DNA of 64,000 bases from Nitrospirota bacterium. Lineage in GTDB: Bacteria; Nitrospirota; Thermodesulfovibrionia; Thermodesulfovibrionales; Dissulfurispiraceae. The stretch is taken from NCBI GenBank assembly GCA_963710375.1, contig CAVPZX010000003.1:352001-416000 (forward strand), given 5' to 3'. The position numbers and the translations under genes were made by a program. This document shows positions 10,184-63,330 of the stretch, one piece after another. The notes beneath the pieces were generated by a model, which worked only from the letters and a program-made list of their open reading frames with translations, ran no database searches and was not told the origin of the DNA. Within the stretch, counting starts at the first letter, position 1. The number at the start of each line of letters is the position of its first letter.

Positions 10184-10367
10184 ATTCAGACAGTGGACAA
10201 GTCTCGGGAGCGAATCGCGGAGTCATGGTAACAGTTCCTAGCGAAGAGAGCGTTAAACAGTCGCTATGTTTGAGCCCGCAGGGCGAGTTTAGCGACTGTA
10301 GCGAACAAGCCTTTGGAACTGTCATGACGCAGCGTCTGAGCGTAGGAGACTTGTCCACTGTCTGAAT
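10184..10367. mobile_element. Palindromic MITE-like element (second family), 184 bp
   Basis: Perfect 22-bp terminal inverted repeat attcagacagtggacaagtctc; nested stems acagttcc / ggaactgt and acagtcgcta / tagcgactgt. Confidence 0.75.
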
Positions 10368-13252: not shown

Positions 13253-13282
13253 GATGCATGCAAGTTATTTATTCGCAGACCC
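13253..13282. mobile_element. MITE terminal inverted repeat remnant supplying the C-terminus and stop of kinase copy 2
   Basis: tgcaagttatttattcgcagaccc followed by TAA matches the MITE right end tgcaagttatttattcgcgagccc-TAA. Confidence 0.8.
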
Positions 13283-16200
13283 TAAGACTCCTGAGTCTTT
13301 GATTTTAGCGTCCAGTAACTCAAGCTGGCTTTCAAGTTCAGGCATAAGTACAATCAGTGTCTCCAGTTTCCCTTTTTCTCCGGCCTGCTGCATATCAGCT
13401 GCTATTGCGCTCATTGCCACACATCCTGTGTTGGCCGCTGCCCCCTTGATCTTGTGGGCTTCTCTCCCTGCAAGTTCCGCATCGCCCAGCACGATCTGTT
13501 CCCTTAGTTCATCAAGCATCTGGGGGATTCCCTCCATGAATGCCGCAACAATTGTTCCGGCAAGACCCTTGTCATCCATTATGCGCTCCAAAAGCCCGGC
13601 ATAGTCAAAGACCGGCAATGCTCCCACTGCTGTTTTTCTATGGTACACATCAGTTGTCAATGGCAACTTGACCCGGGCCTGTGGCAGCCATTTCTCGAGC
13701 ACCTTAGCCACTTCCTGCAGCGAGATCGGCTTTGAGATATAATCGTCCATCCCCTCTTGCAGACATTTCTCCCTGTCACCCTTCATGGCATGGGCTGTCA
13801 TTGCAATAATAGGTACATTTGGATTCGCTGCCTTTGTCTTGCCACTCCGGATAACCTTGGTCGCCTGATACCCATCCATAACAGGCATCTGAACATCCAT
13901 GAAGACTATGTCGTAAGAAGCAGCTTCCAGCATATTGATCGCCTGCTGGCCATTGTCAGCGGTGTCAGCAATAAACCCCAATTTCCCCAGAATGCCCTCT
14001 GCCACCAGTTTATTCACTTTGTTATCCTCCACCAGTAGAATGCGCGCATTCTGCCTGGATGCCTCACGAAGCCGGTGTCCGGTAATAATAGCGGCTTCCT
14101 CCTTTTCATGCAGACTGCTCCCACCAAGGACTGCGGCTATGCAGTCATGCAGTTGGAACATCCTTACAGGTTTGGTTAGATATCCAGAAAATCCAAGGCT
14201 CGCAAACCTCTTTGAATCTCCCCTCACTCCACTGGATGTCAGCATAATCAGCAAAGTATCCCTCAAAACAGGGTCTGCCTTGATGGCCCTGGCAAGGGCT
14301 TCGCCGTTCATGCCAGGCATTTGCATATCAGTAACTACAACCCTAAAGGGGTCCCCTTCAGCTTGAGCGGTATGAAGCATCTCCATTGCCGTTAAAGCTC
14401 CCCCGGCCTCTGCATGGCGCACCCCCCACGACTTCATCTGCTCTGCAATTACAATGCGGTTCACCGCATTGTCGTCTACTGACAGTATCCTCACCCCGCT
14501 GATATCGGCAAATGGAGGCACTTCTCCCCTGTCCGGCTGACTCCCCTTATCGAACACTGCTGTAAACCAGAAGTTGGAACCTTTCCCTTCTATGCTTTCA
14601 ACCCCAATCCTGCCGTTCATTAGCTCAACCAGACGCCTAGATATTGCCAACCCTAGACCGCTGCCTCCAAACTTCCTCGATGTCGAGGCATCAACCTGCT
14701 GAAAACTGTCAAACAATAAAGGCAGTTTGTCTTCTGGTATCCCAATGCCGGTATCCCTAATATTGAAGCGCACCGCAATTTGACCGTCTCTCTCATATTC
14801 CGCCACTGCTTCGATAACCACCTCGCCCACTGAGGTGAACTTGATGGCATTCCCTATCAGGTTCACTAATACCTGGCGAAGCCGGCCAGGGTCGCCTATA
14901 AGGAATGTGTGGACGCCGGGGTCTATCCGGCATATTAACTCAAGACCCTTTTCATAGGCCCTCAAGGCCATAAACTCAGCAGTCTCTTCAAGCGTGTTTC
15001 TCAGATCAAACTCTATTGTCTCTATCTCCAGTTTGCCTGCCTCTATTTTGGAGAAGTCAAGGATATCGTTGATCAGGCCCAGCAACAACTCCCCGCTTGA
15101 GCGCAGCATCTCGGCATAGTTCCTCTGCTCCTCAGAAAGCCCTGTGTCTAGAAGCAAGCCATTCATACCCATTATGCCGTTCATTGGGGTGCGGATTTCA
15201 TGGCTCATGTTTGCAAGGAACTCGCTCTTTGCCACATTTGCGGCTTCGGCAGCTATCTTCGCCCTTTTGAGTTCCTCTTCCACAAGCTTGCGCTCCGCTA
15301 TCTCTTCCTTTAACTGTTCATTGCTCTGACGCAGCGCCCTGGCCGCCAGCCTCTCCTGTGTGACATCGCGGAGTATGCAGATACGTGCTATCAAGCGATC
15401 ATGTTCCAACATGAGCGATGCCGAAATTTCGAGCGTCAACTCCTGACCACGTGGACGGCGGTACAGAAGCTCGACATGCCGCACCATACCCTGAGTGCTT
15501 TTGGGATCGAAGACCTCACGGGATGTCTCCACGGGGAAAAACTCGAAAACGTTATGACCCAGGAGATCCTGGGCCTCATGACCGAGGAGGGCAATGGCAG
15601 CGCTATTCACAACACGAATAATGCCGTCTTCTTCGAGGACGATCAACGAGTCGTTCATCGATTTGATAATGTTATCGGTGTATTCCCGTGATGCGACAAT
15701 CTCTCCCTGAGATTTCTGAAGGGCTTCCGTCATCTTGTTAAACGAATGACCAAGGCGTTCCAACTCGTCTCCTGTCGCTATTTCCGCTCTGGCAGTCAGG
15801 TCCCCTGCTGCCACACGCTGAGTTACATTGTCCAGTGCACTGATTGGCTGGCTCAGCTTTCTTGCAAAGTATAGTGAAGCAGCCATGCCGGCCATGATAC
15901 AGAGAATAGCGAGCCAAAAAGTTCGGATATACATGTTTTTGACATCGTCATGATATTTTTTAAGCGACAAGCCTATGTGTATCCATCCCCAGTCAATCCC
16001 TGAATATTTGAAAGGATAGGAATAATGAAATACTTCCTGCCCTACCAGGTCGCTTTTCAGGAATTGGCTTTTCGCCAGCCTATCGGTCGAGGGGTTCCAG
16101 ATGCCTGCGAGTTGCAGCTGTTTCCACCCACTTGAAGTCTGTACAAGCGAAAATCCATCGCGTCGGGTTATCACTACATAAAGAATAGAAGAACTTTCTT

Positions 16201-33480: not shown

Positions 33481-34125
<645 letters not shown>

Positions 34126-34128
34126 AGT

Positions 34129-35042
34129 ATGACCAAGGACCTGGTCGGAATAAAGGAGATGTCAAAGGAAGACATCGAGCAGGTGCTGCTCACGGCATCG
34201 TCATTCAAAGATGTTTTGAAAAGGGACATCAAGAAAGTGCCTGCCCTCCGTGGAAAAACCGTTGTCAATCTTTTTTTTGAGCCCTCTACAAGAACTAAAA
34301 CCTCTTTTGAACTGGCTGAAAAAAGGCTGAGCACCGACGTGCTCAATTTTTCAGTGCCTACGAGCAGCGTTGTTAAGGGCGAGACGCTTTACGACACAGT
34401 AAAGACTATCGAGGCCTATGGTGTGGATTTCATCGTTATCAGGCATGCTTCAAGCGGTGCCCCGCATTTTATTGCCCGCAACGTCAGCGCATCGGTGATA
34501 AATGCAGGGGATGGTATTAATGAACACCCGACCCAGGCATTGCTCGATGCCTTCAGCATAATAGAAAAGAGGGGAACTCTTGACGGTCTTAAAATCGCTA
34601 TCATCGGAGATATATTTCACAGCAGGGTGGCGAAATCGAACATCTACCTTCTTTCAAAATTCAATACTTCCATCAGGTTGATAGGTCCTCCTACGCTCAT
34701 TCCCGATGTGGGGGATTACGGCGTGGAGGTTTTTTTTGACATGGACAAAGGGCTTAAAGATATCGACGTCGTCATGATGCTGAGAATACAGACGGAAAGG
34801 CAGGGTAAAGGTTTTTTTCCGTCCACCAGAGAGTATTCCAAATATTGGGGAATGGACATGAAGCGGCTTAACCTTACCGGAAAAAATACTATAGTCATGC
34901 ATCCGGGACCGATGAACAGAGGTATTGAGATAGCTTCCGACGTTGCCGACACTCCCGGTCAGTCGTCCTGGACCAGGTGACCAATGGCATTGCGGTCAGA
35001 ATGGCGGTGATGTACCTGTTGGCGGGAGATGGAAAAAATTAA
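34129..35042 (+). CDS. pyrB: Aspartate carbamoyltransferase catalytic subunit with an apparent 1-bp deletion near 34955 (about 304 aa when restored)
   Basis: [17 protein letters not shown]; the conserved tail [21 protein letters not shown] continues in another frame to TAA 35040-35042. Confidence 0.92.
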
Positions 35043-35224
35043 GGGCTTGCGAATAAATAACTTGGGCATTCAGGCGCTCAGATTTGGGTCAGATTTGGCT
35101 GATCCGATTGAGCAAAACCGCAGGCGTAGCACAGCTACGTCGAGGATTTTTCGATTGAGGATCGGACAAAGATGAACCGTAAAGCTGAGATGCATCAAGG
35201 TGCAAGTCATTTATTCGCAAGCCC
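35043..35224 (+). mobile_element. MITE full copy 2 (182 bp) inserted into the original 5' end of pyrC
   Basis: TIR GGGCTTGCGAATAAAT / ATTTATTCGCAAGCCC with a perfect TAA target duplication. Confidence 0.93.
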
Positions 35225-36524
35225 TAATAATCTGCTTATAAAAGACGGCCACATCATCGACCCCTCACAAGGGATCAATGGTATAGGTGATGTCCTAATT
35301 AATGGAGGCACTATAGCAGCAATTAACCTCAAGAACGGAAAACATAATGCCGCTTCCGGACTTAAAGGACTCCCGAACCTGCAGACTATAGATGCGGCCG
35401 GACTATATGTGTTTCCCGGTCTTGTTGACATGCATACCCATCTGCGGGAGCCTGGTGGTGAGCATAAAGAGACCATCAGGACCGGTACTATGGCGGCTGT
35501 CAGGGGCGGCTTTACTTCAGTTTGCTCCATGCCGAATACAAACCCGGTTAATGACAACCCTACAGTCACCGTCTTTATCATTAAAAAGGCAATGAAAGAG
35601 GGATTTTGTTCCGTTTATCCCATAGGAGCCATCACGAAAGGACAAAAGGGTGAGGAGCTTGCTGAGATGGGCCTTATGTATGATGCCGGATGCAGGGCAT
35701 TTTCCGATGACGGCAGGCCAGTCATGAGCAGTATTGTAATGCGTAGGGCACTTGAATACTCCAGGACATTCAATGTACCGATCATCTCTCACTGCGAGGA
35801 CCTTACCCTTGCCGACAATGGCGTGATGAACGAGGGTATTCTTTCTACAACCCTCGGACTGAATGGAGTTCCTTCAGCCGCAGAAGAAGTAATGGTTGCT
35901 AGGGATATTATCCTTTCAGAATTAACGGGAGGACGGCTGCACATTGCACATATTTCGACAGAGGGTTCCGTTAGACTTATACGGCAGGCAAAACAGCACG
36001 GAATACAAGTCACTGCAGAAACATGCCCGCACTACTTTAGTATAACCGAAGACGCGGTCAAGGGATATAATACAAATGCGAAGGTAAACCCTCCTTTGCG
36101 GGCTGAGAAAGACATCGAGGCAATAAAGGGGGGACTACAAGACGGGACGATTGATGTGATTGCTACTGATCATGCGCCCCACCACCGTGATGAAAAGCTT
36201 CAGGAATTTGACAAGGCGCCATCAGGCATCTCAGGCCTGGAAAGCGCCCTAAGCCTGGGACTGAGACTGGTCGAAGACGGCGTTTTAACTCTCGCTGCCC
36301 TTGCGGAAAAAATGGCGTTTAATCCTGCACGAATTATCGGCATTGACAAGGGCACACTTAGGCCGGGTTCGGATGCTGATGTCACAATAATAGATTGCAA
36401 GAAAGAAGTGATTATATACGCAGATGCTTTTGCATCAATGGGAAAGAATACACCTTTCGATAATTGGCAGATGAAGGGGATGCCTGTAATTACAATAGTT
36501 AGAGGAAGTGTCTACAAATTCTAA
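35172..36524 (+). CDS. pyrC: Dihydroorotase; first 18 codons are MITE-derived
   Basis: [24 protein letters not shown]. Confidence 0.95.
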
Positions 36525-41586: not shown

Positions 41587-41671
41587 GACTCAGATGATTC
41601 AGATCAAAAACAAACTAACCAACTCCATGAATTTGACTTGCCTTTTCTTTTCTGATATTCTCATTTGGACA

Positions 41672-42451
41672 ATGAGAATATGGATTGTCTTTGTTATTTT
41701 GATTATACCCGTTACATCCGTATTTGCCTTTGACACAGAAGGGTTGCGGCCGCTCCCTCCTTACGGTGTGTTTTCCACATTCAGCGCAGAAAGCCTTCAA
41801 CAAAACAGTGTAGGGATAGACCTTAGTTTGGAAAAATCTTCACGGCCGAATTTTTATCGCTCAACGCTCCAGCTCGCCTATGGACTCCATGACCGGTTTG
41901 AAATAGATGTGACGCTTCCCTATGACGACAATACTCAAAGACAAATTAGCGGATTGGAAGACGCTAACTTCGGGATAAAACACAGGGTTCTGGATGAGGG
42001 GAAGTATTACCCGGCAATTGCTTATATGCTCACGGTTGCCACACCCTCCGGCGCTAAGCAGTATACTACCAACGGGGAGGATGGGGCTGGGTTGGTGTTT
42101 ACCAAGAAGATAGGTCCTTTCAAAGAGCATCTGAATATATTGTATGAGAGACCCGGGAACTCCGCCTTGCACTACCAATATAATTTAAACTGGGGAAGCG
42201 AGCTGGCAATTACCCATGATTCGAATATCCTTGCCGAACTGGTGGGAAGAAAAGATTACTTTCAAAATAAAATTGATCTCCTGGAATGGAGAGTGGGATA
42301 CAGGATTGCCACTCTTGAGAACCTCTATACGACACTGGGTGCGGGTTTTAACATAGAAAGACGCACCCCCGATTACCGCCTGTTGTTTTCAATAAGCCTT
42401 ATTTTGCCTCAACATAAGAAAAAACTTGAAAAAATCTATGAAGAGCAATAA
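41672..42451 (+). CDS. Putative outer-membrane beta-barrel / transporter-like protein
   Basis: Signal peptide MRIWIVF..VFA, amphipathic strands. Confidence 0.6.
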   Translation: MRIWIVFVILIIPVTSVFAFDTEGLRPLPPYGVFSTFSAESLQQNSVGIDLSLEKSSRPNFYRSTLQLAYGLHDRFEIDVTLPYDDNTQRQISGLEDANFGIKHRVLDEGKYYPAIAYMLTVATPSGAKQYTTNGEDGAGLVFTKKIGPFKEHLNILYERPGNSALHYQYNLNWGSELAITHDSNILAELVGRKDYFQNKIDLLEWRVGYRIATLENLYTTLGAGFNIERRTPDYRLLFSISLILPQHKKKLEKIYEEQ

Positions 42452-42454
42452 TAA

Positions 42455-42479
42455 GGGTCTGTTATTTATTCGCGGACCC
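42455..42479. mobile_element. Internally collapsed MITE remnant (25 bp)
   Basis: TAA-GGGTCTG joined directly to TTATTTATTCGCGGACCC. Confidence 0.65.
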
Positions 42480-42502
42480 TGGTATGTGGTATACTACGTA
42501 TC

Positions 42503-58937: not shown

Positions 58938-61900
58938 ATGAGCCATAACTTATTTATAGATCAGATGGACTATATTTATTTCATCTATGGTCTTGCCTTT
59001 ATTCTGCTTGGTGCGGTGACTCACTTTCTGTCCCGTATTGACAAAAGGCTGCCCTGGACATGGCTCTGCATGTTCGGTTTTATTCATGGCTTCAACGAAT
59101 GGCTGGATATGTTGGCTTTCAGCCTGGGTAACAGTACTATATTCAGTCTTCTGCGTATGTTGTTAATGGTCGCTTCTTTTCTTCTTCTCGTGGAGTTTGC
59201 AAGAAATGGAACCTCTGCGTTGCAGGGGAGAAATGTGTCTAAGTGGGTTCTAGTGCCCTTTCTGGTGTTAGCTGTCTCTGGCGCATTAACAGGGATCGAG
59301 GGGTTAACTGTATCCTGCCGATATGCACTTGGCCTACCTGGAGGGATCTGGTCAGCATGGGTTTTATATCGCTATTCAGATAAGCCCGATCATTTGGAAA
59401 GCGGACGGTGGCTGACATATGCAGCCTTGGCAATGGCTTTTTATGGTTTTTCCGCAGGTTTTATAGTACCGCCATCAGCATTTTTCCCAGCATCTCAGAT
59501 CAATTATGATTCGTTTCTCGCGACTGCTGGCTTCCCGGTTCAGGCAATGCGGTGTTTTCTGGCACTAGTTATCACTCTTGGTTTGTGGCAGCACTATCGT
59601 TCGTGTCATGAGTCTGTCATTTCAATATGGCAAAGATTCTCGTCATAGGCTCATAGGCCGCCTGCTGGTAATTGCTGTCATCTCTGTGCTTGCAATAGGT
59701 TGGGTAATGACAGGCTATTTTGGAAAAGTCGGATTCAACAATGATCTGGCACGTGGGCACTCGAGGTTAAAGTATTATCAGATCCATTTATCTTCCCTGC
59801 TCCAGACAGTTGACAAGGTCGCGATTGCAGTTTCTGAAAGCCCATCTTTGAGCTCAATGACTTCAACTGGAGGGGGTATCAATGAAAAAGCTGTTAATTC
59901 AACTGTTGACCGATACAGCAGCCTTGTTCCGGATACAATCATCTACATCATAAATACTGAAGGGATAACTGTTGCGTCATCCAACCGAAACACACCATCG
60001 AGCTTCGTCGGCGTGTCTTATTTGAAGCGCCCATATTTTTCGGAAGCCTTGAAGGGAACTGCTTCGTTTTATGTAGCTATGGGAATTATGACAAAAAAAC
60101 CGGGCTATTTTGCGAGCTACCCCATCCGTAATCGGTCCGGAAGAATCACAGGGGTAGCGGTTGTCAAATATACCTTAGATGTTGCAACTGAAGGTGAAGA
60201 GAATTACTTCTTGATTGATTACAATGGAATAATTCTTGGCGCCTCCAATCACGATCTGATTATGCGTGAGCTCTGGCCGCTCTCCGGGAATACCCGTCGG
60301 TTTCTGAGAGAGTCCGGGCAGTATCCCTTGTCAGGCAAGGCGCCTCTTTTGGCTGAAACACCTGAAAATGAAAAGCATGTTTATTATGCCGGCAAGCAAG
60401 CCCGCTTTTTGATGATGGAAGTTCCTGACAAGAGAATGTCTTTTGTTTCTATCGGACAGTTCCGGGATCATAAACTGATGCGTCTGTTGGGTATCGGAGG
60501 CACCTTATTCATTGTCCTTCTCAACATCGGCGTCTTTATTATCGAAGAGCATCAGGAGGCGGATAAAGACGCTCTGCGAAAATCGGAATATGCACTCCGC
60601 AGAGTTTTTGATCATGTATATGACGCTGTTCTTGTCCATGATCGGAACGGAGACATAATGGATATCAATGAGCGGGCACTCGCCCTATATGGCGTTACGC
60701 GTCAGGACGCTCTAAAAATGAGTATTATTAAAGATTTCTTAGGAAAGGACAATCCTGCGGATAAGGTTTCTTTATTGTGGGAAAAGGTGCTTCTCGGAGA
60801 GCCTCAAAACTTTGAATGTAAGGCTCGCCGACCCGGGGATGGCACTGAGTTTTATGTGGATATGTTTTTCGACAGGATGGAACTTTCTGGAAGGCATGTT
60901 GTTGTTGCTACAGTCAGGGACATTACTGACAGCAAGAGGACAATGGAAGAGCTTCAGAAACTTTCACAAGCGATACGGCAAAGTGCATCTGCTGTTACCA
61001 TAACAGACACGCAGGGCAGGATAGAATTTGTAAATCCGCAGGCTGAAAAAGTTACGGGATATTCGGCAAGCGAGGTTTTGGGGCAAAACCCAATGATGTT
61101 CAGATCCGGAATTCACCCCGATGAGTTTTACAATTCCATATTCGAGACCTTGAGGTCAGGGCACGAGTGGGTCGGCGAGATATGCAACAGGAACAAAAAA
61201 GGTGACTTATACTGGGAGCACTCCTCTATCGCTCCTGTATTGAACCAAGAGGGCAATATCACTCATTACATCCTGGTCAATGAAGATATAACTGAGCGAA
61301 AACAGATTGAAGAGGCTCTCAAGAAGGCGAAGACGGCTGCGGAAGCGGCGAATGTGGCAAAGAGCGATTTTCTGGCAAACATGAGCCACGAAATCCGCAC
61401 CCCATTGAACGGCATAATGGGGATGACCGGTTTGCTTCTAGACACAGGGCTTTCTGAGGAGCAGCGGAACTATGCCGAGATGCTGCGCTCAAGCGGCGAG
61501 CTGTTGCTGGGCCTGATCAACGACATCCTTGACTTCTCCAAGATAGAGGCAGGCAAACTGGAGATAGAGACAATAGAGTTTGATCTGAGAAACACGCTTG
61601 AAGAGACTGCGGAGTTTCTGGCCTTGAGGGCCCACGAAAAGGGTCTGGAGTTAATATGCCGGATAGACCCCGGCGTCCACACATTCCTAATAGGCGACCC
61701 TGGCCGGCTTCGCCAGGTATTAGTGAACCTGATAGGGAATGCCATCAAGTTCACCTCAGTGGGCGAGGTGGTTATCGAAGCGGTGACGGAATATGAGAGA
61801 GACGGTCAGGTAGCGGTGCGTTTCAATATTAGGGATACTGGCATTGGGATACCAGAAGACAAACTGCCTTTATTGTTTGACAGTTTTCAGCAGGTTGATG

Positions 61901-63330
61901 CCTCTACATCGAGGAAGTTTGGAGGCAGCGGCTTAGGGTTGGCAATATCTAGGCGTCTGGTTGAGCTAATGAATGGCAGGATAGGGGTTGAAAGCATAGA
62001 AGGGAAGGGTTCCAACTTCTGGTTTACAGCAGTGTTCGATAAGGGGAGTCAGCCGGACAGGGGAGAAATGCCTCCATTTGCCGATATCAGCGGGGTGAGG
62101 ATACTGTCAGTAGACGACAATGCGGTGAACCGCATCGTAATTGCAGAGCAGATGAAGTCGTGGGGGGTGCGCCATGCCGAGGCCGGGGGAGCTTTAACGG
62201 CAATGGAGATGCTCCATGCCGCTCAAGCTGAAGGGGATCCTTTTCGGGTTGTAGTTACTGATATGCAAATGCCTGGGATGGATGGCGAAGCCCTTGCCAG
62301 GGCCATCAAGGCAGACCCAGTTTTGAGGGACACTTTGCTGATTATGCTGACATCCAGTGGAGTGAGGGGAGATTCAAAGCGGCTTGCGAGCCTTGGATTT
62401 TCCGCATATCTAACCAAACCTGTAAGGATGTTCCAACTGCACGACTGCATAGCCGCAGTCCTTGGCGGGAGCAGTCTGCATGAAAAGGCCCAGGAATCCG
62501 CCATTATTACGAAGCATTGGCTTCGTGAGGCATCCAGGCAGAATGCGCGCATTCTACTGGTGGAGGATAACAAAGTGAATAAACTGGTGGCAGAGGGCAT
62601 TCTGGGCAAATTGGGGTTTATTGCTGACACCGCTGACAATGGCCAGCAGGCGATCAATATGCTGGAAGCCGCTTCTTACGACATAGTCTTCATGGATGTG
62701 CAGATGCCTGTTATGGATGGATATCAGGCGACCATGGCTATCCGGGGTGGCAAGACAAAGGCAGCGAATCCTAATGTACCTATTATTGCAATGACAGCCC
62801 ATGCCATGATGGGTGACAGGGAGAAATGCCTGCAATGTGGGATGGACGATTATATCTCAAAGCCGATCTCTCCGAGGAAGTTGTCCAAGGTGCTCGAAAA
62901 GTGGCTGCCACAGGCGCGGGTCAAGTTGCCGGCGGAAACTGATACGACCCATGATAAGACAGCAGCGGCAGTAGAAGCATTGCCGGTCTTTGACTATGCA
63001 GGGCTTATGGAACGAATAATGGATGACAAGGGTTTGGCTGGAACAATCGTTACGGCATTCATGAAAGAAATACCCTGGATGGTTGATGACCTCAGGGTGC
63101 AGATAGCGCGTGGCGATGCTGGACTTGCGGGCAGACAAGCCCACAAGATCAAGGGGGCAGCGGCCAACACAGGATGTATGGCAATGAGCGCCATAGCAGC
63201 TGATATGCAGAAGGCCGGAGAACAAGGGGAAATGGAGACACTGATTGCACTTATGCCTGAGCTTGAAAGCCAGCTTGAGTTACTGAAGGCTAAAATCAAA
63301 GACTCGGGGATAGTAGACAGGCGCAGTTGA
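58938..63330 (+). CDS. Hybrid sensor histidine kinase copy 3 (multi-TM sensor, dCache-like, 2xPAS, HisKA-HATPase-REC-REC-HPt); apparent 1-bp insertion near 59613
   Basis: ORF 58914-59648 ([18 protein letters not shown] membrane sensor) overlaps ORF 59578-63330; GGAGG RBS before ATG 58938. Confidence 0.88.

Follow-up and report, generated by a model that had tools for sequence, protein, structure and literature searches.

A short mobile hairpin element within the first codons of pyrC in a Nitrospirota bacterium, and a proposed relay of translation across it

How can a dihydroorotase be made when a mobile element has entered the first codons of its gene? The question is raised by a stretch of 64,000 nucleotides from a Nitrospirota bacterium (contig CAVPZX010000003.1, positions 352,001 to 416,000 of the forward strand), here called the window and numbered from its first letter, in which pyrR, pyrB, pyrC, carA, an open reading frame of 199 codons and carB follow one another in one direction; carA and carB were identified from sequence, with no profile match behind either name. 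The first-pass annotation had placed a mobile element just after the pyrC start, and this was confirmed, a hairpin of 182 nt being inserted 14 nt inside pyrC, on the stop codon of pyrB (Table 1). The same annotation had read the original pyrC frame as stopping inside the element and had pointed to an ATG with GAGG upstream, in frame with pyrC and adding 18 residues. The sequence agrees on both points: the frame from ATG 35029 runs for 48 codons to a TGA at 35173-75, ATG 35172-74 overlaps this stop as ATGA (35172-35175), and the 18 N-terminal residues of the dihydroorotase read from that ATG are of element origin. Upstream of the operon, the match to the PyrR-binding leader falls just below the Rfam gathering score.

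Table 1. Positions of the features discussed, in the numbering of the window
Feature	Position	Strand	Basis or remark
PyrR-binding attenuator-like leader of the pyr operon	33481..33584	+	Rfam RF00515, 52.9 bits (gathering score 54), E 1.1e-5
pyrB	34129..35042	+	NCBIfam PRK00856; C-terminus agrees with relatives; true stop TAA 35040-42
Leader of 48 codons that crosses the element, old pyrC ATG to TGA 35173-75	35029..35175	+	relatives' annotated PyrC start is the same ATG
Left copy of the TAA target, also the stop codon of pyrB	35040..35042	+	sequence
MITE-type hairpin element, 182 nt, +2 subfamily, GGG...CCC, ISAzo13-like ends	35043..35224	.	sequence, fold, copy alignment
Inner stem-loop of the element, weak terminator-like match	35123..35141	+	agrees in 16/19 letters with a Geobacter repeat's central palindrome
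GAGG, weak Shine-Dalgarno-like site inside the predicted hairpin	35157..35160	+	11 nt before ATG 35172
pyrC, dihydroorotase of the multifunctional-complex type, 450 aa, from the element-borne ATG	35172..36524	+	residues 1-18 element-derived
Second in-frame ATG of the element, without Shine-Dalgarno site	35190..35192	+	sequence
TAA, target triplet, right copy	35225..35227	+	sequence
Copy 1 (intergenic), the usual 180-nt form, ahead of an ORF of 525 codons	25148..25327	.	same element

The shortness of the element (182 nt) and its lack of a transposase gene fit a MITE, and terminal inverted repeats of the MITE type are present, the arms at pyrC measuring 34 nt with 82% complementarity. The whole element is predicted to fold as one hairpin (-87.6 kcal/mol at 37 C). 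No Rfam family matches the element and no Pfam family the leader peptide. Alignment with copy 1 shows the two extra bases that had been noted at pyrC, and the read check proposed at the time gave a matching result: Logan contigs specific to the locus, which start at 35111, agree with the assembly across the two bases with 0 differences and 0 gaps in all four runs. The left junction is covered as far as 35095 in three of these runs; no single short-read contig reaches from end to end of the element, the only coverage of 35096-35110 comes from contigs that other copies share, and the assembly itself may derive from one of the four runs. The filled pyrC allele was found in runs of two studies (2022 and 2025), which held no empty allele of the strain. 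Upstream in pyrB, the assembly is without one base at 34951, which short-read contigs restore in the three runs out of three that cover the position, and the frameshift near 34951 is an assembly error.

Public gene calls place the start of PyrC at ATG 35172. The resulting protein of 450 aa matches the whole-domain dihydroorotase profile TIGR00857 (421.5 bits against a cut-off of 279) and, over its full length, PDB entries (E 3e-112); as gene calls only, it is on record from six contigs, and with one residue changed on another. The gene is without internal stop and single-copy in the genome of the window (G000, one of the ten genomes of the genus comparison set). Neither a second type of dihydroorotase nor a uracil permease was found in G000, which is 98.8% complete, and a search of it for upp gave nothing above cut-off. 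Since PyrC is the sole dihydroorotase of a genome of this completeness, in which uracil permease and upp were not found and pyrF and pyrD are intact, it is probably needed. The G000 branch of pyrC has a dN of 0.029 and a dS of 0.309, a low ratio that is evidence of function with the element in place only if the insertion is old in the G000 lineage. A single-sequence AlphaFold model was too uncertain to be informative (mean pLDDT 32), and no sigma-70-like promoter was found within 34900-35400.

With an intact, single-copy pyrC, an empty site in relatives and gene calls that use ATG 35172, a start that now lies inside the element would be the best reading of the locus, as the first-pass annotation had it; its further proposal, an unaided start through GAGG, fares less well, that site being weak and predicted to be buried.

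When the pyrB-pyrC junction was compared among relatives (79 pyrC loci examined, junction obtained in 63), the whole element was found in G000 only. Within the genus, eight of the nine other genomes are empty at pyrC and one carries a remnant. In the closest empty relatives (P0011, P0012 and P0014) PyrC begins MEKINSNLL, with seven residues before LL. The empty site had been rebuilt earlier by removing the element with one TAA; the insertion so deduced holds, and the N-terminus so rebuilt does not, being one codon short of that of these relatives. A contig from run X7 has four letters between the two sides, with 6 differences in about 270 nt.

The remnant is that of G003 (L005, C2 about 106578-106607), where 27 nt of the right end of the element survive in frame at the pyrC site that is filled in G000; translation from the old ATG, the only ATG near the start, would give a PyrC with the N-terminus MEKNKAASHLFARPNTLL, and the G003 protein, as predicted, shows that element-derived residues can persist at the PyrC N-terminus. 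An 18-letter stretch of this remnant has exactly two occurrences in the ten genus genomes, both at pyrC (G000 and G003), and both pyrC genes are one codon short on the right side, which favours one ancestral insertion shared by the two. In the protein tree the sister of G000 is P0012, which is empty at pyrC (support 98/96), and the flanks of G000 and G003 are as diverged as those of any pair (dS 0.53). The sequences would thus fit either of two histories, one with the filled allele lost to empty alleles in several lineages, the other with two separate insertions at one hot spot. That the junction passed recently between G000 and G003 in a long tract was considered and finds no support, the flanks being no closer than average (14/100 and 11/96 differences). 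Because the nearest relatives of G000 (P0012 and the X7 contig) are empty, the insertion may be recent in its lineage, and the low dN/dS may be mostly older than the insertion.

Other pyrC loci deviate in ways of their own. In two (L032 and L033) pyrC begins MEKNKGLL and the letters after the pyrB stop resemble the left end of the element, either as a deletion scar or by chance, and were left out of the count, and in a third (L024, G001:C196) pyrB and pyrC lie in a single open frame of 633 codons with the pyrB end altered, which is a fusion or an assembly artefact.

The element is one of a family that comes in two lengths. The consensus of 180 nt is an ungapped palindrome with exactly one of its six frames open, and this is the frame entered by a gene that starts 8, 11 or 14 nt inside the gene upstream, as the old pyrC ATG does. 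From this it follows that a 180-nt copy with its duplicated triplet would make an in-frame insert of 61 residues; the 182-nt form breaks the open frame at its own ATG and so gives a net extension of 13 residues. In-frame 180-nt copies were found in a gspI-like gene (G000), in prepilins (G003 and G008) and in a 5'-nucleotidase (G005). Database proteins of more than 107 aa that bear the peptide number nine, and in six of these it stands, as judged by eye, before a prepilin motif or a signal-peptide-like stretch; the six include G000's own gene and a protein with a Met of its own downstream of the insert, while the remaining three of the nine look spurious. Copies of 180 nt inside prepilin leaders and signal-peptide-like N-termini were also observed at L112 (G000:C3:302519-302698), L130, L146, L154 and P0004-P0008, among them an LptA-like protein (P0008) in which the copy is internally shortened and the frame kept.

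The form with two extra bases makes up 5 of 51 copies compared, in three genomes. The three in G000 lie at pyrC, at an O-antigen ligase-like gene and at ribD, the element start being each time in frame with the gene, while the remaining two give no in-frame start, the next gene being out of frame at L166 and the copy intergenic at L139; four of the five group in a weakly supported clade (0.52). The two bases had first been taken for a local rescue of pyrC, a claim that finds no support, given the same form at ribD in G000 and at the two sites elsewhere that offer no in-frame start. As this form exists at other sites, L166 and L139 included, it predates the arrival at pyrC. Addition of the two bases as a repair after insertion was rejected on the same two copies and on the grouping in a weakly supported clade.

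A gene start is interrupted by all three +2 copies of G000 and by 1 of the 23 others (Fisher p 0.0015, or 0.027 without ribD, in a post hoc test that draws on an ORF scan and not on empty sites for every copy). Among the 180-nt copies the open frame is not kept above chance, 21/35 being open against 23.0 expected, and in 27% of shuffles at least one frame is open; selection for the open frame across the family, which was also considered, finds no support in these counts. A dN/dS row for L035 was dropped from the same analysis, its contig being frameshifted. Selection probably only filters which insertions survive, with no building of a start needed after the event.

How ATG 35172 is reached depends on the RNA around it. 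The opening cost predicted for its region is 18.1 kcal/mol, falling to 7.8 without the 5' arm, and for three reference positions in the operon it is 8.3-11.2 kcal/mol (the carA position set 1 nt off the start). The duplex of GAGG with the genome's own 16S tail (-6.4 kcal/mol) is similar to that of pyrB. Since the hairpin is predicted to bury ATG 35172 and GAGG is weak and 11 nt away, a coupled start is likelier than independent initiation. We therefore lean, with moderate confidence, towards a relay in which a leader begun at the old ATG is read across the element and translation restarts at ATG 35172. In such a relay the old pyrC ATG would still be supplied with ribosomes by coupling to pyrB, and the hairpin would block independent initiation at ATG 35172. 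A ribosome translating the leader would open the hairpin by removing its 5' arm and would come to a stop at the TGA, on the overlapping ATG, where a restart could be by termination-reinitiation or by initiation on the unfolded RNA.

Gene overlaps of -4 and -1 nt are the commonest arrangement according to the available parts of two papers, which report coupling in 13 of 14 overlapping pairs tested and treat ATGA and TGATG overlaps as the standard mark of translational coupling (PMC6728339, PMC10666635); the accessible text of the second gives a range of -8 to +10 nt as predictive of reinitiation (PMC10666635). The overlap between pyrB and the old ATG is -14 nt, beyond that range, and the same native layout is found in the empty relatives.

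Two other +2 copies in G000 can be set beside pyrC. The copy at C8:42118 (L114/L163, G000:C8:41937-42118, minus strand) lies with the upstream stop flush against the element and the old ATG overlapping the gene before it by 11 nt, and its leader of 40 codons ends in a TGA overlapped by an in-frame GTG and ATG of the O-antigen ligase-like ORF of 803 aa. The standard ATG is lost in this copy and a different stop/start overlap is present instead, an arrangement that would fit coupling better than a fixed ribosome-binding site. A search for its empty site gave no orthologue close enough (1/5 genomes, 35% identity), and for this reason the old start there is read from sequence alone. In the other copy (L110, G000:C8:139005-139185, minus strand), inserted between a ubiD-like gene, named from sequence, and ribD, the ATG is in frame with ribD. 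This is the weaker parallel, as the leader is cut short by about 35 nt at a 1-nt gap in the left half, possibly an assembly error, and a separate ATG further down is available to ribD.

An alternative is that ATG 35172 is used alone through GAGG, the leader being unneeded, possibly after an RNase III-type cut in the hairpin has freed the 3' arm. Its 16S pairing as strong as that of pyrB and the drop in opening cost to 7.8 kcal/mol once the 5' arm is gone speak for this, and RNase III action on MITE transcripts of Neisseria has been proposed, going by the part of the source available (PMC2229807). We nevertheless hold it unlikely, in view of the 11 nt between the GAGG core and the ATG, the 18.1 kcal/mol needed in intact RNA, and the C8:42118 copy, which has another stop/start overlap where the standard ATG is missing.

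Initiation at the second in-frame ATG, 35190, would leave an element-derived N-terminus of 12 residues. This ATG is in frame in both length forms, survives in the C8:42118 copy and is used by one public gene call, in a gspI-like gene (P0032), but it lacks Shine-Dalgarno pairing (-1.8 kcal/mol), has the highest predicted opening cost (21.5 kcal/mol) and lies 14 nt past the leader stop, a distance at which reinitiation in E. coli falls by 40-80% in the accessible portion of PMC10666635, so that we regard its use as improbable.

That pyrC is silent or barely made, with the in-frame ATG a coincidence, is a distinctly improbable reading. The strong predicted hairpin with its terminator-like inner stem would suit it, as would empty closest relatives, since decay may then have lacked time; against it stand the standing of PyrC as sole dihydroorotase where uracil permease and upp were not found, the presence of the filled allele alone in the runs of both studies, the intact carA and carB downstream, and the G003 remnant, which suggests that the insertion is old.

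We give very little credence to a -1 shift of the ribosome within the element, for example on the T5 run near 35146-35150, by which one long PyrC would be made from the old ATG. From about 35128 onwards no stop interrupts the frame of pyrC, and TTT would allow a single-codon slip, but the slippery motif of frameshift sites is a heptamer X XXY YYZ, none of which was seen in phase by inspection, and the C8:42118 copy, alike in overall layout, lacks the T5 run. There is next to no likelihood that misassembly produced the two extra bases and that the element is a clean in-frame insertion, as the usual 180-nt form would be: a 1-nt error is proven 220 nt upstream, but short-read contigs agree across the two bases in 4/4 runs and the same form recurs in other genomes.

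Beyond the relay at pyrC, a wider reading of the family can be offered, tentatively and as rather unlikely: that it is suited to overlapping stop/start junctions in two interchangeable and harmless modes. In the first, the 180-nt form would be read through into pilin leaders or signal peptides that are cleavable, and in the second, stop and restart in the 182-nt form would leave a short tag on enzymes such as PyrC and RibD; later in-frame deletions could then make a permanent new N-terminus, as in the PyrC of G003.

G000 holds 26 full-length copies of the element (28 BLAST hits less two that are divergent or composite), 16 of them of 180 nt, and element matches were found in seven of the nine other genus genomes. 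Identical 3-nt flanks occur at 10 of the 26 copies and a stop triplet precedes 11; uncurated counts for relatives were left aside. The lengths of the lysA and ribD sites are consistent with a 3-nt duplication; at pyrC, removal of the element and one TAA leaves one codon fewer than in the closest relatives. Orthologous sites are empty also at ribD (4/4 true orthologues found) and at lysA (G008).

The end of the element agrees in 14-16 of 19 letters with ends beside ISAzo13-type transposase genes (PF07592) at six loci, end-like matches being present at 8 of 12 transposase loci fetched, and one whole ISAzo13-type element (L167) has TAA on each side. The PF07592 transposase itself was found in neither G000 nor any of 23 genomes of the same family, and in 6 of 151 genomes of the class; the element end was not found in viral contigs. 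An insertion upstream of lysA is common to G000 and G002 (L116 and L134), whose pyrC genes have a dS of 0.61, and the two copies differ at 11/180 sites, a likeness which implies either a slower rate of change in these elements than at synonymous sites or their homogenisation.

Further repeats were observed in the window. A lone element end lies at 42461-42480, just past an ORF of 285 codons (41594-42451). A segment of about 2 kb occurs three times (291-2338, 13263-15310 and 61279-63308; 87-94% alike, one inverted), one copy ending at a lone element end (13264-13283), and a perfect 22-nt inverted repeat with 140 nt between its halves (10184-10367) is possibly a second, unrelated MITE of 184 nt.

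The locus indicates that a gene which is probably essential can survive the entry of a mobile element among its first codons. Should the relay operate, PyrC, and possibly the downstream carA and carB as well, would now require ribosomes to read a junk leader across an extended hairpin, and if the two-mode reading is true, core operons would repeatedly gain new N-termini and new translation-dependent switches from this family. For annotation the locus calls for caution, as such elements move predicted starts and the pyrB 'pseudogene' is an assembly error.

The nearest known systems are the MIRUs of mycobacteria (mycobacterial interspersed repetitive units), which the available parts of two papers describe as mobile palindromic repeats of 40-100 bp in operon junctions. 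They target start codons and carry a short ORF that is coupled at -4 nt to the gene which follows, an insertion being thought to cost little expression (PMC12548453, PMC3184786). The pyrC element appears similar in its place in an operon junction and in the short ORF at -4 nt to the next gene, and differs in its length of 180-182 bp, its target of TNA triplets (often stops), its place at pyrC 14 nt after the start, and a leader that begins outside the element at the host's old ATG, the host N-terminus being replaced. It would thus work like a MIRU but falls outside the MIRU size and target, and is here compared by description and not classed as one.

With insertion sequences of the ISAzo13 family the element shares its ends and the TAA flanks seen at L167, but it is without coding capacity, and no PF07592 match was found in its genome or in the 23 others of the same family. 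Chunjie, a MITE of Geobacter uraniireducens, is said to have entered an operon without disturbing it, as a paper title has it. It is likewise a hairpin MITE, of 178-235 bp in a review summary, which gives it 21-bp inverted repeats and 9-bp direct repeats in contrast to the 3-nt flanks of the pyrC element.

An intergenic multicopy repeat family of Geobacter, described as short RNAs in the available part of its source (PMC2700814), has a central palindrome with 16 of 19 letters in common, compared by eye with the motif of a figure legend only; in that portion of the source it is known neither as a mobile element nor as a donor of starts. For RPE, ERIC, BOX/RUP, BRE and YPAL, the accessible text of two papers records in-frame fusions between element ORFs and genes, among them 5' extensions and signal peptides (PMC3184786, PMC2229807). 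The 180-nt form does likewise in prepilins and exported proteins, but the fusions in that text are direct and no family with two lengths, for read-through and for stop and restart, is described in it. A literature search, with few subscription papers within reach, gave no report of this element at pyrC or as a start donor. What is new is the two-length behaviour within one family and the series of empty, full and remnant states at one site; the principle is already known from the MIRUs, and the gain is a new family in which it can be tested rather than a new mechanism.
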